This document shows, piece by piece, positions 1 to 35,618 of a DNA stretch of 61,336 nt (positions within the stretch are counted from its first letter, which is position 1; the number at the start of each line of letters is the position of its first letter). The notes under the pieces are model-generated. The model was not told where the DNA came from. It saw nothing but the letters and a program-made list of their open reading frames with translations, and did no database searches. Source of the DNA: Candidatus Saccharimonadota bacterium (GTDB lineage: Bacteria > Patescibacteriota > Saccharimonadia > Saccharimonadales > UBA10212); contig JALHRM010000006.1 in the NCBI GenBank assembly GCA_022841445.1, positions 1 to 61,336 of the forward strand, read 5' to 3'. Position numbers and translations under genes: made by a program.

Positions 1-1565
1 GTACCCGTAGTAAACGTATTACTGCCACTGACTGATGTATTGCCGTTGAGAGTAACTGCTCCTGTTCCGGTAGCGAAGGTACCGGTGCCGGATTGGGAGA
101 AGTTGCCATTAAAAACAGCATCGTTACTAAATGTTTTGGCGCCGGCAAAAGTCTGCGCTCCCGTCGAAACAAGTCCCGGAAAACTACCATCGGCTGTTTG
201 CATATATAATGTGTTGCCGACAATCACCGCTCCGTTAGCGCTTTTCGCTTGCGAGTCTACAACCCCGATAGCCGTAACACCGCTACCGGCATTAACACAG
301 TCTGTCCATGCACTGTTTTCAAAGCAGCGGAACTTGCCTGCTGAGCTGTTGTAGTACACCGCCCCGTTGACTCCAGCCGGATCTCCGGCTGTATTCTTAG
401 TGTCCAAAACCAGGAAGTTCGCTGTGCCATCGGCCGTTGGGTTTCCTATATATAGACGGCTGTTGGTGCTGTCTGCAACTAGTAGTGGCGTTGCGGCACT
501 ATTTTGAATTTGGAACGAAGATGTAGAATCAGCCGTTGGCCGGAAGACTGCTGCACCCGCTGCGCCAAACAAAGCTACCGGATTATTGTTCACCTCTAAA
601 TTAAGACCAAAATTGTCGTTTGTACCGATGGTGATGACTGAACCAAATGCATTACCATTGCTATTGATATTGCCACCACCAAGCCCACAATTATTCGACG
701 AATCACATATCGTATTGCCGTTCTGAGTACCAACTGTGTTCAATGTTAGCCCTTGGAATGTGGGGCTACTTAGCTGTCCAATATCCTGCGGCGTACTCAG
801 TGTTATGGTATTTCCCGAAACACTAACCGAAATTCGATTGGTCGTACCCTGCAAGTTCACTGCTCCGCTCGCACCACTTAAATTCAAAACGCCTGTGTTT
901 ACAACCCGATTATCGACAATTGCTGTACCGGCACCGCCCTGCAAAACAACAGGCTCCTGCCCTTGTAGCGCAGCAATTTGAGCAGCTAGCAAATTGTATT
1001 GTGCGACAGTACTAAACTGACAGTTATTGGCGTCAAGACATAATGTTCCAGATGCGTTCGGGAGCACAAACTCCCGATTTTCGGTTAGTTCATTAGCCTC
1101 AAATACGCCATAGGTGGATTGGTTGTACAGCCGAATTGAGCCCTGCGAATAGATATTTCCATTTACAACAAGCGTGTCAGCGGTTGTTTGCAGCGAAATG
1201 CCGGACGGTTTTGCGGCTGGCGCCTGTATCTCAATAGATTGCACTGGGACTGTTTGGGAACGGGCGGCTTCCTTACCCTGCTGGCGACGATTATTGGCAA
1301 TTGTCAGCATGCCAATAGTAGCCACCAGTATTAGTAGTCCAATCAGGACAATAAGTAGTCGCTGAAAGCCAAGTTTTTTACCTGATCGGTCGACAGTAAC
1401 TTCTTGCGAAGCCTGCGGCATATACGCAGCAACAGGTTGTGATGCAACCGTCTGCTGACGCATCTGATTAATAAATCCGTCGGTGGTCGGCTCACTGTCT
1501 AGTGATTCTGGAACGAGATTAGGCAATCTGTTGTCATCTGGTGCAGGGGTGTTTATCGGATTCAT
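1..1565 (-). CDS. Giant N-anchored surface protein, N-terminal ~521 aa only (C-terminus lies beyond window start)
   Basis: Absent from the supplied ORF track because no stop codon is in-window. My own minus-strand translation from the ATG at 1565-1563 gives MNPINTPAPDDNRLPNL.... It continues with a TM helix LLIVLIGLLILVATIGMLTIA and then T/G/N/S-rich sequence containing FQIQNSAATPLLVADSTNSRLYIG and LVLDTKNTAGDPAGVNGAVYYNSSAGKFRCFENSAWTDC. Both motifs recur in 18529..25485. The frame stays open to position 3. Confidence 0.8.
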   Translation of the reverse strand, partial: MNPINTPAPDDNRLPNLVPESLDSEPTTDGFINQMRQQTVASQPVAAYMPQASQEVTVDRSGKKLGFQRLLIVLIGLLILVATIGMLTIANNRRQQGKEAARSQTVPVQSIEIQAPAAKPSGISLQTTADTLVVNGNIYSQGSIRLYNQSTYGVFEANELTENREFVLPNASGTLCLDANNCQFSTVAQYNLLAAQIAALQGQEPVVLQGGAGTAIVDNRVVNTGVLNLSGASGAVNLQGTTNRISVSVSGNTITLSTPQDIGQLSSPTFQGLTLNTVGTQNGNTICDSSNNCGLGGGNINSNGNAFGSVITIGTNDNFGLNLEVNNNPVALFGAAGAAVFRPTADSTSSFQIQNSAATPLLVADSTNSRLYIGNPTADGTANFLVLDTKNTAGDPAGVNGAVYYNSSAGKFRCFENSAWTDCVNAGSGVTAIGVVDSQAKSANGAVIVGNTLYMQTADGSFPGLVSTGAQTFAGAKTFSNDAVFNGNFSQSGTGTFATGTGAVTLNGNTSVSGSNTFTTG

Positions 1566-1755
1566 CTGTAAATCCTTCCGCTGAAATACGGTATTCGCAC
1601 TTGAGCATCAGGTGCAATTTCTCTACGAGAAGTAACGCGAGCCGTACATACGGTACGGTGAAGTGAGCCTCGCAAGAGAAAATTGTGCATGGTGCCAAGA
1701 AGATAGCGAATTAATAACTCAGTTGTTAAGCAAGTTAGCTGTTGCGATTGCCGTA

Positions 1756-2649
1756 TCATACCCACAGTATCCCGGCTATCGATGCCATGCCGACCAGCAG
1801 CACCATCATCGCCATTAACACACCCTTGATTGATTGTCGCTCGATCATAAATTTGGCCAGCGGATTGCGGCCGGTTGCCGAAATTGTGCTGGTCACCGTC
1901 CCATGCACTAGCGCACTTTCAACGGCTAGTAGCGCCAGAAACACGACTAACGCCGTAAGTACGCGCAGCTCATCGACAGATTTACCAGTAATGGTATAGC
2001 CGATGCTTTGTAGCCAATTATCGGATTCATCTTCGGCGCTATAGGTTTTGATGTCCACATTGACGCTCATCAGTGCGAAGGTGGTAGTCATTTTTTTGCC
2101 ATCACCATCACTTACCTCCGTGGTCTGTACATCCCTATCTGATAAATCTTCAAGGGCAACTCCTACGCTGTACTGGCTAATCGTTCCTGCTTTCTGCAAA
2201 ACACCTTTAATCGGCGAAGCTACAAGTATGTCACCCTTTTTCACATCTCCGTTAAGGTTTGATACAAACACGTTTGCCTGTCCGTTTTCGGCGATAAATA
2301 CATCGCTCAGACTAGACCCAACAGCGATCAAGCTGTCAGAGCGATCAACTATCACGCCTAGCGGCACCCTATCAGATGCTGAAGTCGCAGGCTCAACAAT
2401 GAGCTTTAGGGGTGTACTGTCACGACTAAGCACCACTGCCATCCCTGGCTGCAGTGTCGCATCCGAGGTCTGGTAACCTTGCGCTACGGCAAGCGCTACG
2501 GCAACGTTGGAAAATAACAACCCACTGAAGACGCAAATTACGGAGGTAATAACCACTTTTTTTAAAGAACAGTGAATAGCAAAAAAACGTACTTTCAAAA
2601 GTACGAGCAAATAAGGCACGTAAGTTTTTCGAGACACTTTTTTGGCCAT
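1756..2649 (-). CDS. Hypothetical membrane protein (N-terminal signal/anchor, soluble middle, two C-terminal TM helices)
   Basis: 297-aa ORF co-oriented with its neighbours. Hydrophobic stretches are VVITSVICVFSGLLFSNVAVALAVA, LRVLTALVVFLALLAVESALV and GVLMAMMVLLVGMASIAGILWV. No family motif recognised. Confidence 0.6.
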   Translation of the reverse strand: MAKKVSRKTYVPYLLVLLKVRFFAIHCSLKKVVITSVICVFSGLLFSNVAVALAVAQGYQTSDATLQPGMAVVLSRDSTPLKLIVEPATSASDRVPLGVIVDRSDSLIAVGSSLSDVFIAENGQANVFVSNLNGDVKKGDILVASPIKGVLQKAGTISQYSVGVALEDLSDRDVQTTEVSDGDGKKMTTTFALMSVNVDIKTYSAEDESDNWLQSIGYTITGKSVDELRVLTALVVFLALLAVESALVHGTVTSTISATGRNPLAKFMIERQSIKGVLMAMMVLLVGMASIAGILWV

Positions 2650-3089
2650 TGCGAGCGACCTTTGTTGTTTCGTTTTTGGATTTTAAAATTACAACTACAG
2701 GAATTATCCCTTATCCACCTCCGTAATACAAGAGTTCTTATGCTTTAATTTGTTTGAAGTTGATGTGTTATGAACATCATTAATAGTATGAGTGCCCCTA
2801 CTAGTTACTCTGGATAGTTATCCACAATGCCACGTCAAATTCGTGTGCGACACTAGCAAGTAATTCAACATTGATGGCACACGGCGCTTTCTTCGCATGG
2901 TCTTCGATGCTCAGCATTGAGCTCTATGTCGAATACGGGCTATCCACGCGAGACCATGCTTTAAATAATTGACTTTGAACTTCACACTAACATCTATTTG
3001 AGTTATTTCTCTAAGCCCATGTCATTTATTTAAGCGAGTAATTAGTAGCCGTATAATACTAGCTTTTAGGTACTACTTAACAGGTAAAC

Positions 3090-4115
3090 TCACACCCGAA
3101 GAACTATGGCTGAGCCACCAATACCAACTTTAAGACCTTCAAGAAGAATAGTATCTCCCGGTTTAACCCGTCCAGATTCATACAACGCCTTCAAGGCCTG
3201 CGGTACGGTCGCGGCCGAGGAGTTGCCGATACGGTCAATTATACGTACAATAGCTTCCCCTCTTATACCGGTTCGTTTAGGTAATTTCTCAAAGAAGCGA
3301 TCGTTGGACTGATGAAACACTGCGTGATCTAGTTGTTCCGGAGGCACCCCAGCATTGCTGAGCGCTTCCAAGGCTAAGCTTACCGCCATTCGGCTGATTG
3401 CTTGGGCTAAATGTTTGCCATCCATCGCCGCAGTGCTGCCGTGCTCTACTATAAAGAAGTCTCTGTCTGAACCAGCATTATCCCAAGCCGCCCTACCAAG
3501 TAGACCCGCCGAAGAGCCATCACTACGTCGCAGCAGTGCTGCACCTGCCCCATCGGCAAATAATATAGATGTGTCGAAGTCGCCTGTGTCAACAATGCTC
3601 CGTACCCGATCGGCGCCTATCACCAATGCACAGTCGCCGTCTTCTCCTTGCTGGGACAAAAGACTACTTGCAGTTATCACCCCATGAACAAAGCCAGAAC
3701 AGGCTGCACCAAGATCAAAACTGAAGCACTTGCGCAGGTTAAGCGTGTCTTGTGTTTCTTCTACCGCGTTGGGGAGACGACGGTCTTGTGTAGAGCTGGC
3801 GAATATCAGAAATCGTACTCTGTCGGGATTGCCGGGGTCTATGCCAGCGTTTTCCAATGCTGCCCGCCCTGCCCATATGCCGAGGTTCGTGGTCGTTTCG
3901 CCAAGCTTCTCACTCGCCCATGGCCGCTCACGTATGCCAGTCAGATCGTATACTGCCTGAGCAGTTGCCATTGGACCGCCATGGGCGTGAATCATCATAG
4001 CAAGGGCATGATTATTGATCCTGCGCTGAGGCAACTCAACGCCTAAACCAGCAATTTCCAAACCCACAAGAGGCGGTCTAAGTTCGCTGACTCTGTTGCT
4101 GCTTTCGATGGTCAT
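3090..4115 (-). CDS. Beta-ketoacyl synthase III (FabH-like, thiolase fold)
   Basis: Cys-His-Asn triad in FabH-type contexts: FDLGAACSGFVHGV, AVFHQSNDRF and IDRIGNSSAATVPQAL. The start lies 6 nt after the stop of the upstream ketosynthase gene, so the two form an operon. Confidence 0.8.
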   Translation of the reverse strand: MTIESSNRVSELRPPLVGLEIAGLGVELPQRRINNHALAMMIHAHGGPMATAQAVYDLTGIRERPWASEKLGETTTNLGIWAGRAALENAGIDPGNPDRVRFLIFASSTQDRRLPNAVEETQDTLNLRKCFSFDLGAACSGFVHGVITASSLLSQQGEDGDCALVIGADRVRSIVDTGDFDTSILFADGAGAALLRRSDGSSAGLLGRAAWDNAGSDRDFFIVEHGSTAAMDGKHLAQAISRMAVSLALEALSNAGVPPEQLDHAVFHQSNDRFFEKLPKRTGIRGEAIVRIIDRIGNSSAATVPQALKALYESGRVKPGDTILLEGLKVGIGGSAIVLRV

Positions 4116-4121
4116 ACAATT

Positions 4122-5474
4122 TTAGAGTTCCTCTTCACGTACCGTCACCAGTTCACCATTCATACCACCAAAGCCAAATGAATTGTAAAGTGTAGCTGAC
4201 GACCTTATTTCGATCGGCTCATTCATGATAAGCGGCATTCCCTCAGCAGCCGGATCCGGATCAGCAAGGTTAACGGTAAAAGGTAGCACGCCCCTTTGCT
4301 CTGCCTCGATTCCTGCGGCAAGTTCACTGAGACCCGAAGCGCCCATACCATGGGCAAAAGAACCCTTAAGGGAAAAGATTCCAGCAATACCAACGCCTTT
4401 ATCGGCTACCATCCGTATAGCGGCAAGCTCTGCTTCATCTCCTCTTGGTGTGCTTGTAGCATGAGCCTTTATAGCTACCCTAGAGCGCAATTCTTCATTT
4501 AGTGTGCTTAAGGCTTGTAACATTGCAGCAGAAGTCCCTTCCGGATTAGGTTCGGTAGGTGCGCCGGTTGATCTGTCGGTATTGTGGCCGTAACCACCAA
4601 CGAAAGATAATATTTTGGCGCCACGCTCCCTAGCGTGACTTTCTGCTTCAATAACAATAGCAGCACCAGCCTCACCCATGACAAAACCGTCACGATTTAC
4701 ATCAAAAGGTCTCGAGGCCGTACGTGGATCTCTAGATTTACTAAGTGCGCCCAAACCGGCAAAAATGGCCAACGCCTCGGGTGTCATCGTTGATTCAGAT
4801 GCAGCTGCGACGCCTATATTAACCTCTCCGAGTAGGATCATACGTATTATATTTATAGCACCTATGCTTGATGATGCGCAGGCAGCTACCACAGATTCCG
4901 ATGGACCACCCATCCCTGCAAGTCGCGCCGATCTGGAAGAACCTTGTTCAAAAAGCGAGGACAGTCCAGTTCCGGGATTCGGAAGCATTCCGGCATATAC
5001 TTTGGTTCCATGCTCACCCGTTTCGTAAGCATGAAGCATCGTACTGATATCAATGTAGGCATCCGTGCCTGAGCTACCAGAACCCATGACAATTGCCATG
5101 CGTTCTGCGATACCCTCAGGTAAGACCATGCTGCCTTGAGAGGTGAGGCCTGCATCATGGAGTGCCAAGGCAACTGCTGCAACGCCAAGCTTGTTGCTTC
5201 GATGGATAGCGTTTACGACGTTGCCCTTTTTTATACCAGTGATTTCTTTGAACACTTCGTCGGTGAACCCTAATATCGGAGCCGCAACATGAACATCGTA
5301 TGGAAACTTTATACCAAGATCTCGATCAACGTAGACCAGTTCATCGCGCAAATCCCGTACAGCGGTTTCGCCACGCAGCGCTGCATCAAGCGTCTGAGCC
5401 CTGTTCATACCAAGACCAGTAATACACTCCGCGCCCGTTATGACGATTCGCTCGCCCTCAAGAGTCGTAAGCAT
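4122..5474 (-). CDS. Beta-ketoacyl synthase I/II-like elongating condensing enzyme (FabF/FabB-like)
   Basis: Cys-His-His plus Lys motifs: VVAACASSSIGA, IKAHATSTPRGDEAE and SLKGSFAHGMGASG. A GGAGGG Shine-Dalgarno lies 5 nt upstream of the ATG. Confidence 0.85.
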   Translation of the reverse strand: MLTTLEGERIVITGAECITGLGMNRAQTLDAALRGETAVRDLRDELVYVDRDLGIKFPYDVHVAAPILGFTDEVFKEITGIKKGNVVNAIHRSNKLGVAAVALALHDAGLTSQGSMVLPEGIAERMAIVMGSGSSGTDAYIDISTMLHAYETGEHGTKVYAGMLPNPGTGLSSLFEQGSSRSARLAGMGGPSESVVAACASSSIGAINIIRMILLGEVNIGVAAASESTMTPEALAIFAGLGALSKSRDPRTASRPFDVNRDGFVMGEAGAAIVIEAESHARERGAKILSFVGGYGHNTDRSTGAPTEPNPEGTSAAMLQALSTLNEELRSRVAIKAHATSTPRGDEAELAAIRMVADKGVGIAGIFSLKGSFAHGMGASGLSELAAGIEAEQRGVLPFTVNLADPDPAAEGMPLIMNEPIEIRSSATLYNSFGFGGMNGELVTVREEEL

Positions 5475-5554
5475 CTAACCCTCCATTATTGTTAAAATTC
5501 TAGAATAATTATATGCTACTTGATCAAATTACTTTGTGGTGGTTTTCAGAACAT

Positions 5555-6409
5555 TTAATTCAAGGTGAGCAAGTTTATGTAATCTTCCCAAACCGCGTTT
5601 TCCATCTTGCGGTCGGAGCGAATAAAAACTAACAGTTTATCAGTTTTAAGTAGTGCGATTTGTTCTGTTGATACGGTCGAATTGCCAGTTGTTTCGGTAG
5701 TTTTACTCTCGGTAGTATAGGCATCGCCTTTTTTGGTGTCCAGCTTCTGTGTCGCATTAAAATTAGTAGCCAATGTTTTGAAAGATGCCGGGTCGGATTT
5801 GAATTTCGCCGGTAATGCCTGCTGGCTGATCGTTAGTTTTGCTTCCGCCCAAGTGTCTTGATAATTGAGCGTCCGGCGAGTTTTATCATAGTTAAAGCCA
5901 TTTTCGGAATTTACCTGCTTATCGACTTTGGATTTGGGCACTAGCGGAGTGAATGACATACCATCCTTTAACCCTGTTTCGGCAGTGGCCTGTTTCGTTT
6001 TTGAATCAGAGCCGCTTAATCCGTTAAACACAAATACACCAACGATAAGCAGCACAGCGATAGAACCTGATGCCAGCAGTGTGCGTCGGGATACTTTTTT
6101 TATTTTTGAAGCTGCGCGGCGAATAGTATTCTTGATTTTTTTGAGATATCGAGAAGTATCAGGCAGTGCAGGTGCGGTAACATTGATTGTTACGGTGCGG
6201 CTCCGCTCGGCCTTTTTTTTAGCCTTTTCAGCTTTTTCACGCTCTGCCCAAGCTTGTTCTTTCTTTTGCCGCTCAACATCAGCCTGGCGGTTGCGGTAAT
6301 CCTGTGCCTGCAGACGCTCAGCAGGCAACTGTTTACGGAGTCGGCTACTTAAGTTCTCGGTGTCGCCTTCTAGCCAAAAATCGTATGATTCGTCCTCGTT
6401 TTTTTGCAT
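5555..6409 (-). CDS. Hypothetical single-pass membrane protein with K/E-rich N-terminal tail
   Basis: 284-aa ORF with a charged segment QKKEQAWAEREKAEKAKKKAERS, then TM LLASGSIAVLLIVGVFVF and an extracytoplasmic domain. No family recognised. Confidence 0.6.
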   Translation of the reverse strand: MQKNEDESYDFWLEGDTENLSSRLRKQLPAERLQAQDYRNRQADVERQKKEQAWAEREKAEKAKKKAERSRTVTINVTAPALPDTSRYLKKIKNTIRRAASKIKKVSRRTLLASGSIAVLLIVGVFVFNGLSGSDSKTKQATAETGLKDGMSFTPLVPKSKVDKQVNSENGFNYDKTRRTLNYQDTWAEAKLTISQQALPAKFKSDPASFKTLATNFNATQKLDTKKGDAYTTESKTTETTGNSTVSTEQIALLKTDKLLVFIRSDRKMENAVWEDYINLLTLN

Positions 6410-6479
6410 AGTAATACCCTTAAGCCTAGCACGCTGTCAAATTAAAGCACAAGAGTTTATGCAGGATACCAGCAACAAC

Positions 6480-8693: not shown

Positions 8694-8818
8694 ATCTAAT
8701 AATGTTCCTTTTTGAATTAATTTGTTTTTGATTTTTGTTTTATTTGGTTTAGCTAGACTTTAACACACATTGCGCCGTATGCACAATGTGATCGAACCGT
8801 CTTGGCTTATTAAGAATT

Positions 8819-10930: not shown

Positions 10931-11205
10931 GACAAAACCTTTACGTTTAACTTAAGTTTGATTATACGATGATTTTCATAAAATCAATATTGTATTTTGA
11001 GTCACTGAGGGTTGACGCAGCGGGTTAAGACAGCCATTATTAAGTAGAAACTATCTCGCAACTTATAGTTTTTTGTGACTAATGACTGCCTTAACGCGGG
11101 GCATCAAAACCCTCGTTTTAGGGCGTTATTTTTATTTTTGCTACTATTGCTTATTGTTATGTCATTTTAAGCTCCTTTGGTTTATCGCATCAGCGTTTAT
11201 ATACA

Positions 11206-18525: not shown

Positions 18526-18528
18526 AGC

Positions 18529-21500
18529 TTACCTACCTGTCGTGGTGAAGCTTAACGTGCCGACATACACGTTGGCGTTGCTATTCGCCTTCACATTAAT
18601 CTTGAATATTACAAAGGCATTGGCCGAGTTAGTAGTAAATCCGCAACCAGTCGCTTCGTTACCATTAATACCGACCGTTTGCCAAGTATTAATAGTACTG
18701 GTAACCGTCGTTTCCGTACCGCAGGCACTGATTGATCCGGATTCACTGCGGTACATCTGGTAGGTGACGACACCGTTAGTGGTATTGTCGGTTCGTGCGG
18801 TCAACTGGACAGTATCGTCACTGGCAAATTCCTTGAAGGTGGCAGGTAGCTGATAGGTCACGTAGATACTGTAAGTTTGCTGTGTTGCTTGTGGGCTCGT
18901 CCACTGGTAGTAGTTACGCGCTTCACCGCTGGCACACAACCCAGTATTGACCGACAAGCCGCCACCATTACCACAGAAGTCAGCCGTCATCGTACCAACT
19001 CCCGTACCATTTAGTACAGCGCCGGCAAATTCTGGGTTAAGGTTGGCGATGTTGTCTGGCGCTGAACCGCAAGCTCCCCAGCCATCAGCTTCGTAACATT
19101 GGATGCGCCCGGTTGTTGTGTCGTAGTACATTGAGCCAAGGTACGCATCGTTATTCGCAGCAATCGGCGCAGTTGATGCCCGGTCGAGCGTGAATAACGT
19201 GGTTGGTCCGCCCTTGTTGGCACCACCAATTTGTACATTGTTGGCATTATTTGTGTTCAGAGTGACAGTAAGAGCATCGATATAGATGGAGCGTGTTCCG
19301 CCAGGAGCTGCATTTTGAGTAAATATTAGGTCAGCATTGCTCGGTGCGCTGGAATCGGTCGTAAATAAGCAGGTGATTTTTGTCCATCCAGTCGTTACAA
19401 GAGTCTGTGTATTGTAATCAACACAGGATTCAAGATCAGTACCACCATCACGCGAGTAACGCACCGTTAGATCAGTGATTGAGCCAGTGGCCGTACGACC
19501 ATAGAAGCTTACCAAATATTGGGTACTGACCGCTGGCGTAATAGCCAAGTTGTTTCGGATACCCATGTTAGCATGGTTGCTGGTATCGACTCGGGCTGAG
19601 CCGCTAGAGTCGTAAAGCACAGTCGTATCTCTTGCAGCTGTCGCTGTACCAGCACCACCACCATCACCATCAAAAGCTGTCCAGTTTGTTCCGAAAGCAC
19701 CAGCGTTGTCAACGCTTCCATCTGCCGCATAGGTAGCACTAGCGTTAATATTGACGCTAAGGTTATCTACATAGAACGTACGGGCTGTGGCATCTGTCTG
19801 ACGAATAAGCATGGAATTGCTGCTGGTTATTGTGCCGCTTGCTACAAAGGTACATGCAATTCTAGTCCAGATCCCGCTGGTGACAGTCTGACCAGTTGCA
19901 CAGGTTGTAGTACCAGAAGTTGTGCCATCCGGTGAGTAGAGTACCTGTAGTGTAGTAAAGTTGGCTGCCCCACGAACTGCAACTGACACGGAGTATGTTA
20001 AACCTGATGTCAGTGAAGTACTAATACGGTTTCTGGCACCATGGTTAGTGGTAGTGGTCTGCACACGAACTGAAGCCTGACCGGTAGCTACGTTATCACC
20101 AGTAGTTGTCCAGCGATCTACGGTACCGCCGGTGGTTGTATCCCAAGTATTACTCGGGAAGGTAGATGCACTGCCACCGGCAGTTTCGGCACCACCGTTT
20201 GTGGCAAATTCCGCTGCATTGTTGTTCACACTAAATAAATTACTCCCAATCGAAGTCTGGGCTTCGAGAATACTGCCAATTATCGGGGTTGTGGCGTTGT
20301 TTCGAATAGTCAAACCATCAGCCGCACCACCTGGCGCGTTAAGTACCAGCTCGGCGCCACCTGCACTTGAAATAGTGTTGTTGTAGGCAGACTGAAGGTC
20401 AGTTGAGCTACTTGCACCAGCGGCCGTCCAACCAGTGCCGTTCCAGATGAGTGTGGCTGTACTGTTTTCTTTCATGACAATCGTAATAGAAGTACCGGCA
20501 AGCGAAATCGTAAAGTCGTTGGAGTTATCAACTGCCGCGATATAAAGCAGCCGTCCAACGACCTGGTTGGCAGCTGCCGGTGCTGGTATGGTAACGGTCA
20601 GGCTGGCTGCCGTCGCATTAACTGGGATTGTGCTGTACTGATCAACTAATCCGGCCGTTAGGCTCCCATTACTACCGAATGCCTGGGTTGACGCAGAAGT
20701 AAATGCTGACGTAGACAGGTTGACTAACCCTTGCACACCACTGCCTGTTCCAGTACCACCTTGTATTATTACGTTACCGCCATTTTGGTTAGTGCCTTGG
20801 CCGTCTCCACCCGATACCGTCAGTACGCCACCAGCACCTGCATTGCCCTGGCCCGCCTTAACAGTCAGGCCTCGTCCGGCACCAGCAGAAGTATTTTGAA
20901 GCACCTGCACCATTCGGTTAGCATCGCCGCCGAACTGGATATCGCCGTTAAATGTTGCTGTTCCACCTACACCAAGCGTGCCGTTAATCTGGACAGTCCT
21001 GCCAACATTCAACGATCCGCCAACATAGGCATTGTTACGAACATTTGCGTCTTGTGTATCAATGGTACTGGCTTTGATACCACCAGCTTCAAGTTGTTGT
21101 ATATACGCGCCGCCAATATCAAATACCTGGAATTGGTCATTATTATATATAGGTACATAAGCATAGCGACCATTTACCGCCAAGTGATATGGGCTGTTAC
21201 CTGTTGTCACGCTGTTAAGTGCTACTGGGGCTGCTGGGTTCGACAGGTCGTAAGTCATGAGTTTACTTGTAGCACCTTGGTTACTAACTCCGTACATAAA
21301 CCTGCCTTGTACGTGGAGTTCTTCGATGTCAGCATCGCTAAAGAAGGTCGTCACATCAACCGGATCAGCCGGATTAGAAACATCCAAAACATTAATGTCG
21401 TCATCTGTATCACTTACATAGACATACTTGCCGTATTTGGCGATAGCCAGACCGGCCAATCCGGTTTGTAATGTTTCGGTGTACGTGACTGGGCTGGCGG

Positions 21501-24500
21501 GGTTGCTGACATCTACCACTCGTAAGTTGGCTGCAGCCGCGAGGTAGACGTAGTTGCCTTCAATGTACGCTTTACGTGGACTGTTTAAGCTTGATGCTGT
21601 GCCAAGCAACCTTGGGCTGGCGGGGTTGCTGATGTCAAATATCTGCAGTGAATCACCTGACGCTCCATCGTTAACTACGTAAAGGTAGTTACCGCGAGCC
21701 TCAAGCCACAACGGGTAGTCGTTTGTGGAAACGCTTGTCACGGCTGTTGGTACTGCTGGGTTCGTAACATTCACTACGGCAACTTGGTCAGTGGCGCTCA
21801 TTGCTAAGTAGGCGTAGCCGCCAGAAACAGTAATTGCTTCCGGACTGGTGCCAAGCGCACTAAAGTCCGTACTGCTTACAACCGTAGGACTAGCGGGATT
21901 GCTGATGTCAATGATATCCAGGTCAGATTCATCGTAACTAGCGACGTAGGCATAGTTACCAACCACATCAATATCGTCACCACCAAGACTCAGAGAACCA
22001 CCTGATAGAGTCGTCAGTGCTACACTTGGCGTGCTGCCACTCACGTACAGCTGCGCAGTTTCCGTACCGTATGTTCCAATGTTAACCCGGCCGTTGGTTG
22101 TATCAACATCGAGCAGGCTTGTTCCCGCCGCATTTTGAACAGATAGTGCCGATGTTGAGTTGTTAGCATTTCGTAGTGTGACCATACCATCGACCGACAG
22201 ATTACTCCTAAAGCTTGCCACTCCTTGCACACCAAGCGTACCAATAATCTGTGTATTGCCGGCTGTTAGGGTTCCGCCTGTTCCGCCTTCGGCTAAGTTC
22301 TCACCGGAAAGACCAACGAGGTCTAGTCCACCGCCTATGGTAACTCTTGGAGTAGATACATAGTGGACTTCGTTATCACTTGCACCCATGCCAAGAGCGT
22401 ATAAGTACCCATTGGTTGTGAAGAAGCCAATGTCGCTTTCTGTGGTAGTCATTAGAGTAGTGTTAGTAGCCCAAGCTCCTGTACTTCCGTCACTGTTAAG
22501 TTGAGCATAGAAAACTTCGTCTTGAGAGCTTGTTCCGTCAGTACCGCCCCAGTAGTAGAGATAGCCATTGGCTACGCCTGCTCCACCCCACGCGCGCCCT
22601 GAAGGCAACAAGTCAGCCTCTTCTGTCCATGTACCAATTGTTCCATCAGAGTTAAGCCTAGCGTAGAAGACTTCTGTCTCATCAGGTGAGGCACCCTCTT
22701 GTCCGCCAATGGCGTAGAGGTAACCATTCGCTGCAACCGCTCTTGTCGCCCGGGCAACTTTAGCTGTTGGGAATACATTGCCGCTTACTGTCCAAGAACC
22801 AAGTGTTCCGTCAGCGTTTTGCTTGGCATAAACAGTGGATCCTATTGCAGATGATGTATCACTACCAGCCACTAGGTATATATAGCCATTGTAGGCAACC
22901 GTACCTGAAGTGGAACGTCCCGTTGGCAGTGCAGTTGTAGTGTTCCAAGAACCAATCGTTCCATCACTATTTATCTTGGCGTAGTTAGCAGTAGTTACAC
23001 CAGTTGTAGCTGTATCATCAGTGCTGTTACCGCCAATAGCATAGAGGTAGCCATTCATAGCTACAGTTGAGATGTCTTCTCTAGCTACAGACAATGCAGT
23101 TGTACTAGTGAATGAGCCTAGGGATCCGTTGGCATTAACTCTGGCATAAAGCACGCTGGTTGTAAGTGAACCAGTGTCACCACCAACAATATATGCATAG
23201 CCATTGGCGTAAGTAACAGAACCTTGGTTGTAGCCTGAAGGTAGGTTATTGCTGTTGGTAGTCCATGAGCCTACTTCCCCTCCATTGTTCCCAAGCACGG
23301 TAATGTTGCCTGCATTGGTGGAATCAATATTGAATAGTGAAGCACCGGCAGCGTTTTGGACTTGGAAGGCAGCGGTGGAGTTAGTTTGATTACGGAAGGT
23401 TGCAGCTCCACCATCGGCAATGGTCAGTACGTCTGTTGCCGTAGCGGTCGTGTCTCGTACTCGAAGTAGGTTGCCTGTGCCAGCAGACTGGATGTCGAGG
23501 CCACCGACTGCACCTGTAGCAAGTTGGTCAATGGTGACTACGTAACCAGTACCATTAGTACCGCCTGAGCTTGGGTTGCGGAAGATAAGCGAGTCATCGT
23601 CAGCGGTCAGTGAGATGACTGAGTCACTGCCATCAGTGTCATTATTGTATGCATCCTGCAGCGAGGTGAAGCCATCTAAACAGTCTCCCCAGGCACTATT
23701 CTCATAACAGCGGAACTTGTTAAGGTTGCTGTTGTAGTACATACCCCCATTAACGCCAGTTGGGTCAGTACCGTCTGTTTTTGTATCAAGTACTAGGATT
23801 GTGCCGATTGTATCACCGGTTGTATCACCAACGTAAACTCGGTTGTTAGATGTATCGACAGAGAATAATTCGTTGGTGCCAGCAGCATTCTGAATCTGGA
23901 AAGCGGTTGCTGAGTTAGTTGAATTAACTAAAGTTACCGCACCAGTACCTGATACACTCGCAACGGTAGTTGCACCGGAGTTGTAAAGATTCAGGATATT
24001 TGTTCCATCAGCGTTAGTACCCAAATTAGTCCAGGCAGATGTTCCGGTTGTTCTTACTTGCAGGCCGGCTGCACCGCTCAATTCGATAAGTTCATCCCCG
24101 GTATCGCCGTATATCTTAAGCCCTTGCTGGCTACCGGTATCGACGGTTAGTCTTGCTGAACCATCAGCCTGCTGAATCTGAAAGGCGGTTGAAGAATCGG
24201 CCTGATTTCTGAAAATTGGGCTGTCCTGACCAGCATCTACCGTTACGAAAATGCTAACCGTGCCAGTTCCTGAGGCGAGGGCGGTCAAAGCTCGGCCAAT
24301 TATTCCAGTTGTAGCATTATTGTCTTTAATTACACGTCCTGTAGTGGTTGACGTTACAAGCTGATCACCTATTGCTATTGCACTTGCCCCACCACCTCCA
24401 GCGTCAGCATTAACCGTTGTGTTGCCAAACACAACCACATTCATAGTTCCACCAGATGCTGTTGTGCCTGACGATGCATTTATACCGTAAACTCTAGGAT

Positions 24501-25485
24501 TTCTGGCAGTAGTAGTCGTGCTAGCCGTGTATCCAGATGCATCGAGCACCAAGACATCATTTTGATCAGCGCCGGTCGTACCCGCTATTGTGTACTTATT
24601 GAACGCACCGCTATTTGTAGTAGTACTCGTAAACCTAAAATTACCTGCAGTCGCGATCGTTCCAGTCACTTCTAGCCCACCGGCGCCAACATTGGCTGCA
24701 GTATTGTTCCCGATTGCTACTTTCTGATTAGTTGTATCAACTGTGAGTACTTTAGTCGCACCCGATTCTAGAACCTGAAAACCAGCCGCAGAGTTAATAG
24801 AGTTCTGGAAGGTCGTTGCTCCACCAACTGCTATGGTTGCTTGGGTAACATTATTAGTTTCAAAGGTTAATGAGTTGCTGTCGTTAGTACCAAGTACTGC
24901 TGTTGCAGCGAATGTATTGCCACCCTGTACAAAGGCAGCACCTGCACCAGTGGTGTTACAGGTGGATATGATGTTGCTAGTGTTTCTACATAGGTAAGTA
25001 GCACTGTCAGCAGTACCCAGTGTAGTTATTGCTACTCCACCAGCTGACTGTAGTGTGGTGAGACCAGCAATAGTAGAACCAATAGTTACGTTAGTAGTAG
25101 AACCAGCGGTGCCGCTGTTTCCTATATTAATAGTCTGGGTGTTACCGTTACCGGCTGCTCCACCTATTGAGATGGTGTTGGTGGCGGTGGAGCGCCCAAG
25201 TGTCATAGTACCGGTTTGAGCAGTACCACCGAGGGCAATTGTACCGGTGGTAGTAGCAGCTGCCAGATCATAGGTAGTTGCTGCTACGCCGTTAAGACTA
25301 AAGTTGCCTGTGCCAGCTTGCAGATTCAAAGCTGTTGCACCCGTTGTGTTTCCTATGTTAATGGTCTGAGCTACTGCGTTATTACCGACATTAAGTGCAC
25401 CGGTGCCCTGAGTCGTAATATTAAGTCCGCCTGTTCCAGCCTGGACAGTGGTAGCGCTGGTTGTGTTAGTAGAACCAACGTTCAC
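18529..25485 (-). CDS. Giant surface protein, distal 2318 aa; probably the 3' part of one gene with 25548..27917 (frame-disrupted)
   Basis: The track start is an internal GTG with no Shine-Dalgarno. The frame stays open a further ~130 nt upstream and encodes the same repeat style. Content includes recurrent FQIQN...VDT.N motifs, Kelch-like units (GYLYAIGGNS, GYIYLVAGSD) and seven LVIVD-type units (GNYAYVASYDESDLDIIDISNPASP ...). Two CBM4/9-like jelly rolls each end in FYVDNLSV or IYIDALTV, and the tail is Cys-containing. Confidence 0.85.
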   Translation of the reverse strand: MNVGSTNTTSATTVQAGTGGLNITTQGTGALNVGNNAVAQTINIGNTTGATALNLQAGTGNFSLNGVAATTYDLAAATTTGTIALGGTAQTGTMTLGRSTATNTISIGGAAGNGNTQTINIGNSGTAGSTTNVTIGSTIAGLTTLQSAGGVAITTLGTADSATYLCRNTSNIISTCNTTGAGAAFVQGGNTFAATAVLGTNDSNSLTFETNNVTQATIAVGGATTFQNSINSAAGFQVLESGATKVLTVDTTNQKVAIGNNTAANVGAGGLEVTGTIATAGNFRFTSTTTNSGAFNKYTIAGTTGADQNDVLVLDASGYTASTTTTARNPRVYGINASSGTTASGGTMNVVVFGNTTVNADAGGGGASAIAIGDQLVTSTTTGRVIKDNNATTGIIGRALTALASGTGTVSIFVTVDAGQDSPIFRNQADSSTAFQIQQADGSARLTVDTGSQQGLKIYGDTGDELIELSGAAGLQVRTTGTSAWTNLGTNADGTNILNLYNSGATTVASVSGTGAVTLVNSTNSATAFQIQNAAGTNELFSVDTSNNRVYVGDTTGDTIGTILVLDTKTDGTDPTGVNGGMYYNSNLNKFRCYENSAWGDCLDGFTSLQDAYNNDTDGSDSVISLTADDDSLIFRNPSSGGTNGTGYVVTIDQLATGAVGGLDIQSAGTGNLLRVRDTTATATDVLTIADGGAATFRNQTNSTAAFQVQNAAGASLFNIDSTNAGNITVLGNNGGEVGSWTTNSNNLPSGYNQGSVTYANGYAYIVGGDTGSLTTSVLYARVNANGSLGSFTSTTALSVAREDISTVAMNGYLYAIGGNSTDDTATTGVTTANYAKINSDGTIGSWNTTTALPTGRSTSGTVAYNGYIYLVAGSDTSSAIGSTVYAKQNADGTLGSWTVSGNVFPTAKVARATRAVAANGYLYAIGGQEGASPDETEVFYARLNSDGTIGTWTEEADLLPSGRAWGGAGVANGYLYYWGGTDGTSSQDEVFYAQLNSDGSTGAWATNTTLMTTTESDIGFFTTNGYLYALGMGASDNEVHYVSTPRVTIGGGLDLVGLSGENLAEGGTGGTLTAGNTQIIGTLGVQGVASFRSNLSVDGMVTLRNANNSTSALSVQNAAGTSLLDVDTTNGRVNIGTYGTETAQLYVSGSTPSVALTTLSGGSLSLGGDDIDVVGNYAYVASYDESDLDIIDISNPASPTVVSSTDFSALGTSPEAITVSGGYAYLAMSATDQVAVVNVTNPAVPTAVTSVSTNDYPLWLEARGNYLYVVNDGASGDSLQIFDISNPASPRLLGTASSLNSPRKAYIEGNYVYLAAAANLRVVDVSNPASPVTYTETLQTGLAGLAIAKYGKYVYVSDTDDDINVLDVSNPADPVDVTTFFSDADIEELHVQGRFMYGVSNQGATSKLMTYDLSNPAAPVALNSVTTGNSPYHLAVNGRYAYVPIYNNDQFQVFDIGGAYIQQLEAGGIKASTIDTQDANVRNNAYVGGSLNVGRTVQINGTLGVGGTATFNGDIQFGGDANRMVQVLQNTSAGAGRGLTVKAGQGNAGAGGVLTVSGGDGQGTNQNGGNVIIQGGTGTGSGVQGLVNLSTSAFTSASTQAFGSNGSLTAGLVDQYSTIPVNATAASLTVTIPAPAAANQVVGRLLYIAAVDNSNDFTISLAGTSITIVMKENSTATLIWNGTGWTAAGASSSTDLQSAYNNTISSAGGAELVLNAPGGAADGLTIRNNATTPIIGSILEAQTSIGSNLFSVNNNAAEFATNGGAETAGGSASTFPSNTWDTTTGGTVDRWTTTGDNVATGQASVRVQTTTTNHGARNRISTSLTSGLTYSVSVAVRGAANFTTLQVLYSPDGTTSGTTTCATGQTVTSGIWTRIACTFVASGTITSSNSMLIRQTDATARTFYVDNLSVNINASATYAADGSVDNAGAFGTNWTAFDGDGGGAGTATAARDTTVLYDSSGSARVDTSNHANMGIRNNLAITPAVSTQYLVSFYGRTATGSITDLTVRYSRDGGTDLESCVDYNTQTLVTTGWTKITCLFTTDSSAPSNADLIFTQNAAPGGTRSIYIDALTVTLNTNNANNVQIGGANKGGPTTLFTLDRASTAPIAANNDAYLGSMYYDTTTGRIQCYEADGWGACGSAPDNIANLNPEFAGAVLNGTGVGTMTADFCGNGGGLSVNTGLCASGEARNYYQWTSPQATQQTYSIYVTYQLPATFKEFASDDTVQLTARTDNTTNGVVTYQMYRSESGSISACGTETTVTSTINTWQTVGINGNEATGCGFTTNSANAFVIFKINVKANSNANVYVGTLSFTTTGR

Positions 25486-25547
25486 AGTTTGCGCAGCAGC
25501 ACCAGTACCAACATTGGTCGTTCGGGCTTGGGCGGTTGTACCAATGT

Positions 25548-27917
25548 CTATGTTGCCAGTACCTGAGTTAATAGTCGTAGAACTCGTACTAGCAGTGAAC
25601 CAAGAGTTGTCGTCTTCGCACCGGTGCCACCAGTAGCGAGGTTAATGGTCTGAGCTCCTGTACCTGTACCCAGGGCAATGGTTCCTGTTTGGGCGCCGGT
25701 GCCACCAATAGTGATGGTGCCGGTGGTAAAGGCAGCACCTATGTTAACAGCCCCGGCCGTGTTGGCGTTAGCAATGTTCACAGTTGTAGCACCAGTACCA
25801 TTACCTATTAATACCGAGTTAGTGCCTGATGAGCTACCCAAAGTTATGTTGCCTGTCTGGGCGGTACCACCGATTGCAATGGTGCCGGTTGTTAGATTAG
25901 AGCCAATCGTGTAAGTAGCCCCTACTGTACCCTGCAGAGTAATAGCTGCCGTATTAGTGGTGTTGCCTATGTCGACGCCGGTAGCAGTCGTACCGCCCAG
26001 GGCTACAGCACCTGTTATGGAGTCAAACAGCGGTGCCGTAAAGCTGGTGTTCGCTCGACCAGTGCCACTAATTCTAAAGTCAGCGGTTTGGTCGGATGCG
26101 TTTTGGTTGAGGATCGAATTGGCACTGGCACCAGTACCGGCTATCTGCCAAGATGCTCCACCGTTCGTATTACTCCAAACAACCGTAATGGCTGTGCCGG
26201 GACTAACTACAGTGCCCAGCATTGTGAAGCTAGTAGTCCCTATGCTGGATATATATAAGAGTCGTCCGTAATTGGTGCTGGCAGTTGGGGTTGGGAGAGT
26301 AATGGTTTGACTGGCTGTCGTTTGAGCAATGGAGATAGAGGTGTAGACATCAACTGACGCTGAGGCAGCAAGACCACCTCCGAGCGCCCCACCATTTGCA
26401 TCATCCGTGACTGCCAGTGTGGTATTAAATGTCGCACCATTATTTGTAAACACTCCGGAGCCAGCAGCGTTACCTAGCGTGGTATTAGCATTCCGTACGG
26501 TTAGAGTGCCGGTAGTTGCACCTAGACCAATACTAGTCGCAGCCTGCAGGGCTGTAACGGTACTAGCATTAGTGTTAAAGAGTGCGAGTGTTGTGGCCGT
26601 TGTCGAGACGGTAGGACTGTTAATATTTGTCGTTGCCGAGTTGATCGTAGTCGAACCAGCGTTAACATTGTTACCGATAGTGACATTAGTAACACCGGTT
26701 CCAGTTGGGGTGCCTGCTCCAATGTTTATAGTTTGGGTATTGCCGTTTGATGTATTACCAGATCCTATTGCAATGGTGTTGGTAGCGGTAGATTGGCCGA
26801 GGGTGATAGTGCCAGTGCCAGCGGTAGAGCCAAGGGTAAGCCCGCCGTTAGTAGTGTCAGCAACAAACTGTGCAACACCGGAAGCATTTTGTATTTGGAA
26901 GGCGGTGGTTGAGTTAGTGCTGTTTTGGAACAGTGCTGCGCCGGTACTGCTGAGGCTGGCGACTAACGTGTTGTTAGTTTCGAACTCGAGACCAAATCCA
27001 TCATTACTGCCAATACGAACTGCCGCCCCAAACGTGTTGCCACCCTGCAAAATATCACCTGTACCACTACAACTTCCCCAAGACGGAGCCGAACCTGTCG
27101 TTGCCCGGAAACATTCGCCCGATGATCCTGCTGCAGTAGTGACGACATTACCCGATGCATCACGGTAATAAACACCGTTGTTCGTGCCACCCGCTATACT
27201 CACTGCACCCTGCAACAATGTCGTGATACCACTCCGACCAATAGTGATTCCAGATTGATTAGCCGTGCCGATGCTGATAGTCCCAGCGGTCTGCGTCGCC
27301 GTACCGACATCGATGCTGATATTACCTGAGTTACTCGTTGCACCGGCTGCATTACCAGAAGTTATCGACACATTTGCGGAATTAGTACTTGCGGCATTGG
27401 TGTTGTTACTGGCGACATTGAGCGCCACACCCGCCTTGAAGGCGTATGGCACGGCGGTCAGTTTGGTTCGGGGCGACATCTCGCCGTCATAAGTCGGTGT
27501 TGCGGTTTGAGTCGCGCCGCCAATGTTCATCGTCAGCCATAGCTCTTGATCCCAGTCGATTGTGCCCGGGAAACTGGTCAACGATCCAAGGTAGGCGCTG
27601 AAGTAACCATTCACTACCCGCAGTCGATTGTCCTGTCCAGCAGTCACGCCGTTGGCGTCGTAGTACGTCTCCGTCCAGAGCGCAGAACCACCAGACGAAG
27701 CACCGTAGAGCTTGAACTCTACATTGTAGTAGCCATCAGGTACGATTGCCCCGCTACTACTGAGGAGACGGGCTTGAAAATTGAGCGTTGAGCTCGTTGC
27801 TGCTTGTACCGGTTTGCCAGAAGTAGCAATAACGACAAATAGCAGCATCAGTGATGCTGCTATTAGCAGGCGAATACATAGCCCTACTGAACCGTTGCGA
27901 GCCGGTTGTTTGGTCAT
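25548..27917 (-). CDS. Giant surface protein, proximal 789 aa with signal/anchor; probable 5' part of the gene continuing in 18529..25485
   Basis: N-terminus MTKQPARNGSVGLCIRLLIAASLMLLFVVIATSGKPVQA. It is followed by LNFQARLLSSSGAIVPDGYYNVEFKLYGASSGGSALWTETY...EMSPRTKLTAVPYAFKAG, an N-domain pattern I recall from many large CPR surface proteins. The last ~15 codons (LLVRVLRLLTQVLAT*) break the T/G/A/N repeat style, which is what an out-of-frame tail looks like. Confidence 0.85.
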   Translation of the reverse strand: MTKQPARNGSVGLCIRLLIAASLMLLFVVIATSGKPVQAATSSTLNFQARLLSSSGAIVPDGYYNVEFKLYGASSGGSALWTETYYDANGVTAGQDNRLRVVNGYFSAYLGSLTSFPGTIDWDQELWLTMNIGGATQTATPTYDGEMSPRTKLTAVPYAFKAGVALNVASNNTNAASTNSANVSITSGNAAGATSNSGNISIDVGTATQTAGTISIGTANQSGITIGRSGITTLLQGAVSIAGGTNNGVYYRDASGNVVTTAAGSSGECFRATTGSAPSWGSCSGTGDILQGGNTFGAAVRIGSNDGFGLEFETNNTLVASLSSTGAALFQNSTNSTTAFQIQNASGVAQFVADTTNGGLTLGSTAGTGTITLGQSTATNTIAIGSGNTSNGNTQTINIGAGTPTGTGVTNVTIGNNVNAGSTTINSATTNINSPTVSTTATTLALFNTNASTVTALQAATSIGLGATTGTLTVRNANTTLGNAAGSGVFTNNGATFNTTLAVTDDANGGALGGGLAASASVDVYTSISIAQTTASQTITLPTPTASTNYGRLLYISSIGTTSFTMLGTVVSPGTAITVVWSNTNGGASWQIAGTGASANSILNQNASDQTADFRISGTGRANTSFTAPLFDSITGAVALGGTTATGVDIGNTTNTAAITLQGTVGATYTIGSNLTTGTIAIGGTAQTGNITLGSSSGTNSVLIGNGTGATTVNIANANTAGAVNIGAAFTTGTITIGGTGAQTGTIALGTGTGAQTINLATGGTGAKTTTLGSLLVRVLRLLTQVLAT

Positions 27918-28130: not shown

Positions 28131-28160
28131 GTAAAAAACACTACAAATTATAGTGTTTTT
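28131..28160 (-). terminator. Rho-independent terminator after rplU (hairpin is symmetric, could act bidirectionally)
   Basis: Minus-strand RNA reads AAAAACACUA-UAAUUUG-UAGUGUUUUUUAC. The ACACUA/UAGUGU stem is extended by A-U pairs and followed by a U6 run, 18 nt downstream of the rplU stop. Confidence 0.7.
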
Positions 28161-28177: not shown

Positions 28178-28489
28178 TTAGGCAATTTTGCTGATTTTGA
28201 GTGTCGTGTGGCGTTGACGATGGCCGCGTACTTTGTGTACGCGTTTCTTAGCTTTGTAGCGAATAGCCATAACCTTTTCGCCTTTTTCATCAGCTTCTAC
28301 AACATCAGCGGTGACCTTAATGCCACTTACCAGCGGAGTGCCTACTGTTGTTTTATCACCGTCCATAACCAAAAGTGCTTCGAAGCTAGCTGTCTTGCCG
28401 GCATCTTTGATCAGATCAACTTCGATTGTTTCGCCTTCGGTAACGACATACTGCTTGCCACCGGTGAGTATTACTGCTTTTTTCGTCAT
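28178..28489 (-). CDS. rplU: 50S ribosomal protein L21
   Basis: MTKKAVILTGGKQYVVTEGETIEVD...AIRYKAKKRVHKVRGHRQRHTTLKISKI is the characteristic L21 pattern (GGKQY, RxKxxKRxxxRxGHRQ), and the protein is 103 aa. Confidence 0.9.
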   Translation of the reverse strand: MTKKAVILTGGKQYVVTEGETIEVDLIKDAGKTASFEALLVMDGDKTTVGTPLVSGIKVTADVVEADEKGEKVMAIRYKAKKRVHKVRGHRQRHTTLKISKIA

Positions 28490-35542: not shown

Positions 35543-35559
35543 ACAAATAATTATAAATT

Positions 35560-35605
35560 CTTTATAAAAATATAAAAGAGGACTCGTGTAAAGTCCTCTT
35601 TTTAG
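35560..35605 (-). terminator. Rho-independent terminator after nrdJ
   Basis: Minus-strand RNA reads AAAAGAGGACU-UUACACG-AGUCCUCUUUUAUAUUUUUAU. It has an 11-bp stem and a U-rich tail, 14 nt after the nrdJ stop. Confidence 0.8.
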
Positions 35606-35618
35606 GTGCGCTGGACTA

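Follow-up and report, generated by a model that had tools for sequence, protein, structure and literature searches.

The DNA analysed here is a 61,336-nt stretch (the window) from a Candidatus Saccharimonadota bacterium (assembly GCA_022841445.1, contig JALHRM010000006.1, positions 1 to 61,336). Its first 27,917 nt, bordered on the right by the ribosomal protein gene rplU, are filled by 10 minus-strand open reading frames (ORFs) that encode giant surface-type proteins, candidate glycan-active enzymes, small membrane proteins and a pair of ketosynthases (KS). We consider that this block is probably an expanded and variable cell-surface locus, which in Saccharibacteria occupies a constant chromosomal site after ftsA-ftsZ-nrdR-nrdJ-ileS-rplU and, in the relatives, ahead of parA-parB. 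That is, the sequence comparison indicates that the site is conserved and its first gene ancestral, and that the amount of surface-protein coding found there varies from nothing to more than 28 kb.

The evidence for a fixed position comes from syntenic relatives, which were reached via homologs of the 789-aa ORF next to rplU and comprise four lineages with five loci: GCA_016219345.1 (L033), GCA_029288365.1 (L035), two JGI metagenomes (L036 and L037) and another JGI metagenome (L066). In all five loci the gene order is nrdJ, a small ORF, ileS, rplU and then a gene for an exported protein carrying the same N-terminal domain as the 789-aa ORF. The genes ftsZ-nrdR precede nrdJ wherever the locus extends that far, as does ftsA in L033 and L035. 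Identity between the window and these relatives is 74-76% for nrdJ, 66-69% for ftsZ, 56-64% for rplU and 40-42% for IleS, and the rplU product L21 is closest to proteins from Saccharibacteria metagenome-assembled genomes (MAGs), with 53-60% identity; an identical L21 sequence was not found in an exact look-up. The protein encoded after rplU in L035, L036 and L066 is 914-1265 aa long and collinear with the product of the first gene of the block, which in the window is broken into two ORFs. Its N-terminal domain is 61-72% identical to that of the window in L033, L035 and L036 (64-72% in the latter two) and 39% identical, over a longer stretch, in L066; furthermore, L035, L036 and L066 match an internal module and the C-terminal domain of the window protein (30-41%). 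In L033 the ortholog already contains Kelch-like propellers, the Kelch part being 44% identical to that of the window gene, and the contig ends there.

The size of the interval, in turn, differs greatly between loci. In L035, L036 and L066 the surface gene or genes are followed by parA-parB, an S26 signal peptidase gene and LytR, and in the Saccharibacteria locus L001 rplU is followed directly by parA-parB with no surface gene between them. The distance from rplU to parA is thus 94 bp in L001, 3.3 kb in L035 and L036, 6.3 kb in L066 and more than 28 kb in the window, and the number of genes in it is 0, 1, 2-3 or at least 5 in the relatives and at least 10 in the window. This range bears out the expectation of a preliminary description of the window, made from the letters alone, that the block would be variable among relatives. 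The accessory status that it implied does not extend to the first gene, which is an expanded ortholog of the gene that occupies this position in four related lineages. A further locus was seen on a 303-kb Saccharibacteria-like contig (L067, positions 439-21661), where at least 21 kb of surface-protein genes lie directly upstream of parA-parB. The proteins encoded there are 1611, 1034, 1279, 1414 and 873 aa long. Three of them are tandem paralogs that carry the N-terminal domain of the family, accompanied by one DUF2341/Laminin_G_3 and one Big_7/fn3 protein, and we read this arrangement as an independent expansion of the locus.

At the right-hand border, a terminator had been proposed at 28131-28160, and the A/T-rich hairpin identified 3′ of rplU (Table 1) agrees with it; a consensus terminator scan missed this hairpin because it contains fewer than 3 G-C pairs. 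It had also been stated that rpmA, the usual neighbour of rplU, is absent, and a search with the L27 signature indeed found no rpmA in the window. The same search located rpmA within ~0.7 kb downstream of rplU at 24 of 27 non-Saccharibacteria loci (mostly Chloroflexota) and next to rplU at none of the nine Saccharibacteria loci that contain rplU (L001-L004, L033, L035-L037 and L066). Since the two genes are uncoupled in all nine cases, the lack of rpmA beside rplU characterises the lineage and is not the scar of an insertion. The rplU-rpmA operon appears, from these gene orders, to have been broken up across Saccharibacteria. On the other side of rplU, the 690-bp gap between ileS and rplU (28490-29179) holds no ORF longer than 90 aa and no Rfam match; at the corresponding position L036 and L037 carry a gene of 380-405 aa, no remnant of which was detected in the window by tblastn.

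The block had been singled out as a single-strand island. The 10 ORFs are indeed all on the minus strand, but the run is not confined to the block. It goes on to the right through rplU, ileS, a polysaccharide-lyase gene, nrdJ, nrdR, ftsZ, ftsA, map, adk and yqeY, spanning positions 1-46128 with 13 housekeeping genes in total, and about 29 of the 36 genes of the window are on this strand. Co-orientation is therefore not an island marker. A comparison of the composition of 1-27917 with that of the neighbouring genes had been suggested as a check, and it revealed no difference either: the G+C content is 0.46-0.51 in the block versus 0.44-0.51 elsewhere, G+C at third codon positions (GC3) is 0.40-0.49 in block genes versus 0.30-0.54 in housekeeping genes, and block genes correlate with the housekeeping set in their synonymous codon use at 0.57-0.84, compared with 0.53-0.93 for the housekeeping genes themselves. 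GC skew falls steadily over the whole window. The giant genes deviate in tetranucleotide usage, an effect that we attribute to amino-acid composition because it is shared by another gene rich in Thr, Gly, Ser and Asn codons at 57808-61230. Moreover, scans of the window revealed no tRNA and no Rfam match at gathering thresholds, Pfam and NCBIfam scans of the block proteins detected no integrase or transposase domain, and no long exact or flanking repeats were found, the left border of the block lying beyond the window. Comparison of the giant and small block proteins with PHROGs gave no phage relationship. Promoter and terminator scans of 1-11400 gave no more matches than expected by chance and therefore defined no transcription units.

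The first gene of the block is also the largest, and it is interrupted. If read through, it would encode an exported protein of about 3,130 aa; as it stands, the upstream frame remains family-like (Thr/Gly-rich) up to "...AKTTTLGS", continues with 15 junk residues and stops at 25548, and the downstream frame, which is open from 25641, is family-like from "TASTSSTTINSGTGNIDIG". The family-like sequence thus changes frame at ~25595-25600, which implies a 1-base indel. The ortholog in L033 (GCA_016219345.1, L033:13040-13200) is split as well, into overlapping ORFs of 1040 and 1233 aa with the frameshift lying within a repeat motif. Breaks in this gene family could either reflect a proneness to assembly indels or be biologically recurrent. 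The 789-aa upstream ORF begins with a predicted classical signal peptide ending between VQA and ATSS, directly followed by a domain of ~127 aa that defines the family. This domain stands at the N-terminus of 116 of 119 database matches, with 42-78% identity, and the named sources among these matches are mostly Saccharibacteria or Saccharimonadales. In a 38-member alignment N46, R50, D61-G62, Y64, W81, G104-Y105, W122, E146-M147 and P157 are invariant. The AlphaFold2 model (predicted local distance difference test score, pLDDT, 87) is a generic Ig-like sandwich, and a comparison with PDB structures gave no match below E = 0.03.

Table 1. Features of the block and its surroundings (positions in the window; aa, amino acids; TM, transmembrane segment; GH, glycoside hydrolase; PL, polysaccharide lyase; CBM, carbohydrate-binding module)
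Feature	Position	Strand	Evidence
N-terminal 521 aa of third anchored giant, cut by contig end	1-1565	-	TM residues 71-89
297-aa membrane protein	1756-2649	-	Topology prediction; outside known families
FabH-like ketosynthase, 341 aa	3090-4115	-	C139/H268/N298
FabF-like ketosynthase, 450 aa	4122-5474	-	C199/H338/K370/H375; GGAGG ribosome-binding site
284-aa one-TM protein	5555-6409	-	TM residues 110-128
737-aa anchored lyase-like protein	6480-8693	-	PL-like jelly-roll 7809-8519; Big_7 Ig domains; CBM60/35 6492-6863
703-aa anchored GH-like protein	8819-10930	-	TM; TIM barrel 9860-10693; Pro/Thr linker; CBM6 9293-9622; CBM60-like 8834-9070
2439-aa membrane-anchored Kelch protein	11206-18525	-	Kelch families 1e-28 to 3e-33; TM residues 71-89
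Cys-containing repeats of 2439-aa protein, six or seven, ~50 aa	about 13426-14418	-	Repeat analysis
Giant exported-protein gene (~3,130 aa if its frame were continuous), split into two ORFs	18529-27917	-	Frames; collinear matches in relatives
Downstream ORF, 2318 aa, other frame	18529-25485	-	ORF call
Modules of broken gene: Kelch-like propeller(s), LVIVD propeller, two CBM4_9	19315-23427	-	PF08309 1.7e-29; PF02018 1e-14; weak Kelch matches
Upstream ORF, 789 aa	25548-27917	-	ORF call
1-base frameshift site	25595-25600 (about)	-	Family-like sequence changes frame
Signal peptide (residues 13-31) and family-defining N-terminal beta-sandwich domain (residues 37-165)	27423-27881	-	Homologs; AlphaFold2 model
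A/T-rich terminator-like hairpin 3′ of rplU	28134-28160	-	12-bp stem, -10 kcal/mol, z = -2.8
rplU, right-hand anchor of locus	28178-28489	-	PF00829 1.4e-26; 56-64% identical to syntenic relatives
Paralogous polysaccharide-lyase protein, 766 aa, outside block	32654-34954	-	PF14099 1.5e-12; 48.3 bits (cut-off 29.9)

The other block proteins share several properties with the first. The preliminary description had recognised three N-terminally anchored giants rich in Thr, Gly, Ser and Asn. The richness is confirmed, these residues making up 39-50% of the giant proteins versus ~22% of housekeeping proteins, and so are the N-terminal hydrophobic segments, but 18529-27917 is not one ORF. Topology prediction gave one strong N-terminal hydrophobic segment in each of the eight non-KS block proteins, the two anchored hypothetical proteins already described as such included. 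In all of these except the 789-aa ORF, a predicted cytoplasmic tail of 35-110 residues precedes the transmembrane segment (TM). The carbohydrate-related modules that had been noted in the block are likewise present, in the form of Kelch, LVIVD, CBM4_9, CBM6, CBM60, PL-like and GH-like domains on proteins predicted to be exported or anchored, and the best of them score well above their Pfam gathering cut-offs (in bits, Kelch_1 98.6 versus 20.1, LVIVD 101.3 versus 20.2, CBM_4_9 55.5 versus 25.9 and CBM_6 68.1 versus 28.9).

The second giant, which starts 3 bp past the stop codon of the preceding gene, has several Kelch propellers. Its Cys-containing repeats each carry a CxxxxC pair (consensus ...AIGTDGLPVISY..D.TN.DL.V.KC.N..C.S.NTTT); this region gave no Pfam or PDB sequence match, and the repeats may form a propeller of their own. 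The third giant, truncated by the contig end, shares modules with both ORFs of the broken gene (45-48% identity over 86-97 aa). Among the small proteins, the one of 284 aa has a homolog in L066, where a 248-aa gene (31% identity over 136 aa) lies between the surface protein and parA. The one of 297 aa is predicted to have one or two N-terminal hydrophobic segments (one of them marginal), an exposed domain and two C-terminal TMs. A low-stringency Pfam search with nine unassigned segments and the 284-aa protein gave no usable match.

Two proteins of the block had been described as secreted lyase/CBM proteins. This is apt for the 737-aa protein, whose N-domain shares 52% identity with the PF14099 domain of the paralogous PL protein at 32654-34954 (243 aa aligned). 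PF14099 itself gave no match in the block protein at E ≤ 0.01 in the Pfam scan, and a PDB sequence search with this protein found nothing; its CBM60 scored 41.9 bits against a cut-off of 28.2. The 703-aa protein has a different domain. Its N-domain was modelled by AlphaFold2 (pLDDT 90) as a (β/α)8 fold (residues 80-357), and Foldseek matched this TIM barrel to GH168 fucanases, TM1410, GH114 and GH191 galactosaminidases and the PelA hydrolase domain (probability 1.0, E 4e-7 to 5e-5, TM-score 0.44-0.64). On the grounds of this model and these matches the protein is glycosidase-like and not lyase-like, and we regard it as a candidate for a glycosidase-like enzyme. The domain matched nothing in Pfam or among PDB sequences, nor did a profile built from its family, and this family is rare, with 178 representative clusters among 1.84 billion. 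Within the family D137 and E208 (domain numbering) are invariant and D138 is near-invariant, making these residues, which are D206, E277 and D207 of the complete protein, the candidate catalytic acids. A metagenome scan with a narrow alignment of the domain returned 23 mostly short contigs without other island genes, and most relatives of the domain come from short contigs of metagenomes on which nothing points to Saccharibacteria. The CBM60-like module of the same protein falls just under the Pfam cut-off (26.3 versus 28.2 bits).

Similar secreted-type proteins are also encoded beyond the block. The PL gene at 32654-34954 separates nrdJ from a conserved 88-aa ORF (32359-32619), and four related lineages have the order nrdJ-88-aa ORF-ileS uninterrupted. 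By this comparison the housekeeping array has received a gene for a secreted glycan-active protein at a second place too, in an insertion smaller than the block. The other is the 1140-aa, T/G/S/N-rich lectin-like protein at 57808-61230 (minus strand), which has a weak H-type lectin match, a weak match to the PHROG "baseplate wedge tail fiber connector" and internal 300-nt repeats with a spacing of 906 nt; no N-terminal hydrophobic segment is predicted with the start codon used. Finally, a 224-aa ORF with a TTG start (35099-35773, minus strand), which matches no family, shares 155 nt with the 3′ end of nrdJ. It is either not a gene or a gene whose start has been placed wrongly.

An unexpected component of the block is the FabF/FabH-like pair, the existence of which is corroborated. 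The two genes are 6 bp apart, both have ribosome-binding sites, and neither product has a predicted membrane anchor. The pair had been called an orphan operon. This is true of the 61-kb window, in which there is no acyl carrier protein (ACP) or other gene of type II fatty-acid synthesis (FAS-II), but it holds only within the window, and ACP and reductive enzymes may be encoded elsewhere in the genome. An ACP was found in the window neither by tblastn (with an Escherichia coli ACP query), nor by a DSL-motif scan, nor among the ORFs of the 440-bp gap past the FabH-like gene. C199, H338, K370 and H375 of the FabF-like protein are invariant in an alignment with seven FabF proteins, as are C139, H268 and N298 of the FabH-like protein in its own alignment. 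Judged by these residues, the pair is probably catalytically active, though unusual. The pair does not match the minimal set of a type II polyketide synthase (KS-alpha, chain-length factor and ACP), in which one of two FabF-type subunits lacks the active-site Cys and an ACP is adjacent: the partner of the FabF-like protein is of the KAS III type with an intact Cys, and there is no ACP ORF in the window. The mycolic-acid theme of another study (PMC11880426) was dropped as a clue to the pair, because it concerns host genes only. We found no account of ketosynthases in Saccharibacteria in the literature searched.

It is quite conceivable, though in our view somewhat less likely than the contrary, that the pair is simply the remnant of an ordinary FAS-II whose other genes (acpP, fabD, fabG, fabZ and fabI) lie elsewhere, and is unrelated to the surface locus. 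The best PDB and NCBIfam matches of the two proteins are true FabF and FabH, with which they share thiolase-fold domains and the intact C-H-H and C-H-N residues, and only 61 kb of the genome is visible. However, both proteins fall far below the family cut-offs. The FabF-like protein scores 218.9 bits against 493.75 for TIGR03150, with all other KS models likewise below theirs, and the FabH-like protein scores 177.5 against 292.1 bits for TIGR00747 and 199.6 against 249 for PRK09352. In addition, the FabF-like protein carries four insertions; in a set of 5.8 billion proteins, the closest homologs other than itself are only 33-34% identical. The FabH-like protein has four close relatives (L038, L039, L068 and L069; 40-47% identity), all solitary, on short contigs next to prephenate dehydratase and/or Band_7 genes and with no FabF-like gene in the recovered flanks. 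Moreover, Saccharibacteria are generally reported to lack fatty-acid synthesis (PMC10633639), and, unlike FabF and FabH of FAS-II, the pair has no ACP or reductive enzyme nearby and sits inside a surface-protein locus.

If the block is indeed an expanded surface locus, its history and function could be pictured as follows. The ancestral occupant of the site would have been a single Sec-exported protein with the conserved N-terminal β-sandwich and a conserved C-terminal domain. In the window lineage this gene would have grown about threefold through the uptake of propeller and carbohydrate-binding modules, and at least nine more genes would have been added: the second giant Kelch protein, the anchored GH-like and lyase-like enzymes with their CBMs, the two small membrane proteins, the third giant and the KS pair. 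The anchored proteins may extend outward from the cell, where their CBM, Kelch and LVIVD modules would hold polysaccharide while the TIM-barrel and jelly-roll domains cut it. Such activities would let the cell adhere to a host bacterium's envelope or exopolysaccharide, or feed on it. The KS pair would most likely join malonyl units to acyl-CoA or acyl-ACP with the help of a carrier protein that is encoded, or obtained, elsewhere. Host attachment and glycan processing are plausible by analogy with the cultured Saccharibacterium Southlakia epibionticum, in which transposon sequencing showed secreted glycan-binding and glycan-degrading proteins to be essential for epibiotic growth (PMC10633639), a result that makes the host-glycan reading a reasonable one. 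More speculatively, and with only a slim chance of being right, the divergent pair might extend or rebuild host-derived acyl chains, or make a small polyketide-type lipid for the host interface, without a full FAS-II of its own; separately, and equally conjecturally, the rplU-parAB interval might be a general hot spot of Saccharibacteria for the gain and loss of host-range determinants.

Several points weigh against the interpretation of the block as an expanded surface locus at a fixed site. The arrangement is not universal among Saccharibacteria, as L003 and L004 have an M50 protease gene after rplU. The relatives are distant (IleS ~41% identical), so that the variability is seen above the genus and species level only. 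The left border lies beyond the window, which means that the position of parAB at the far side is known from the relatives and that the size of the block is a lower bound. The frameshift could stem from an error in the assembly, or else the largest gene may not be functional. What the sequences show is gene and domain content, predicted topology, synteny and variability; that the proteins are exposed at the surface, which glycan they target, what they do towards a host and how the KS pair functions are all things that we infer. Lastly, the target could be an environmental polysaccharide and not the envelope of a host, a possibility opened by the GH-like domain relatives, most of which are on those short contigs with no visible Saccharibacteria link.

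A different function, which we consider unlikely, is that the giants are structural envelope or S-layer parts of the Saccharibacteria cell itself and neither adhesins nor processors of host glycans. One homolog is named "S-layer family protein" by NCBI, although this is a label of the source only, and an outer layer has been seen by electron cryo-tomography in a related parasite (PMC11880426). Furthermore, the N-terminal domain ranks with the most conserved portions of the locus, at 61-78% identity in close homologs versus 41% for IleS, which suggests a conserved interaction with the cell's own envelope. However, Pfam and NCBIfam scans found no SLH or other S-layer anchoring domain, the extreme differences in length and domain content among relatives fit an interaction interface better than a lattice, and the CBMs and catalytic domains point to an external polysaccharide.

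Assembly problems are improbable as an account of part of this picture, namely that the repetitive giant genes caused mis-joins or indels from which the frameshift, the end of the contig and perhaps also the surroundings of the KS genes result. The contig does end inside a giant repetitive gene, the 1-base frameshift falls in a repeat-rich stretch, and the L033 ortholog from an independent MAG is frameshift-split too. Nevertheless, the join between rplU and the giant gene recurs in five independent assemblies, so that an artefact might lie behind the frameshift, but not behind the locus as a whole. The block is also of even composition and lacks long exact repeats through which mis-joins could arise, and its KS genes are preceded by ordinary ribosome-binding sites and do not differ from their surroundings in codon use. 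A recently acquired mobile genomic island, inserted by rplU and displacing rpmA, would account for a large block of non-housekeeping genes that varies among relatives and begins right past a terminator-like hairpin, yet this origin is very improbable given the housekeeping-like GC, GC3 and codon use, the lack of a tRNA, integrase or transposase domain or flanking repeats in the window, the orthology of the first gene with the gene at the same position in four related lineages and the separation of rpmA from rplU in all nine Saccharibacteria loci.

Taken as an expanded surface locus, the block resembles several known systems in part. The secreted glycan proteins of S. epibionticum (PMC10633639) come from the same phylum, are exported, combine lectin-like or carbohydrate-binding with degrading domains, and have host glycans as their proposed target. 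They are likened to the block by domain content, their domains being VCBS, dockerin and fn3 and those of the block Kelch, LVIVD, CBM4_9, CBM6, CBM60, PL-like and a new GH-like type. With the exported-protein family of Saccharibacteria annotated as "S-layer family protein" or "exported protein of unknown function", the first gene shares the N-terminal domain (42-78% identity), the signal peptide and the position after rplU; the members listed are 440-1375 aa long, whereas the window gene would encode ~3,130 aa, has extra propeller and CBM modules and is frameshifted. The 703-aa protein shares its predicted (β/α)8 fold and the presence of invariant acidic residues with the exopolysaccharide and fucan glycosidases of GH114, GH166 (PelA), GH168 and GH191, but is only 10-15% identical to them, and no sequence relationship was detected. 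Giant1-5 of Apilactobacillus kunkeei, another symbiont with a small genome (PMC12863079), are likewise consecutive, co-oriented genes for surface proteins of thousands of residues that occupy much of the genome's coding capacity; they belong to an unrelated lineage and are likened by description, and the block of the window differs in its interspersed enzymes and KS pair.

Giant, variable surface proteins in ultrasmall symbionts are thus of a known kind, and most of the block is an ordinary, though extreme, example. What appears to be new is the fixed rplU-parAB position, the scale of the expansion, the unclassified glycosidase-like family and the embedded divergent KS pair, and in the literature searched we found these details, a variable rplU-parAB locus included, described nowhere. 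The rare glycosidase-like family, and a KS pair in bacteria believed to rely on the lipids of their hosts, would each be noteworthy alone. How Saccharibacteria recognise and exploit their hosts is largely obscure, and the few genetic data point to secreted adhesins and glycan-active proteins. If the rplU-parAB site gathers and turns over such genes, it would offer a simple handle for genome comparison and for the prediction of host range from one interval, and the locus would also supply candidate adhesins and enzymes.

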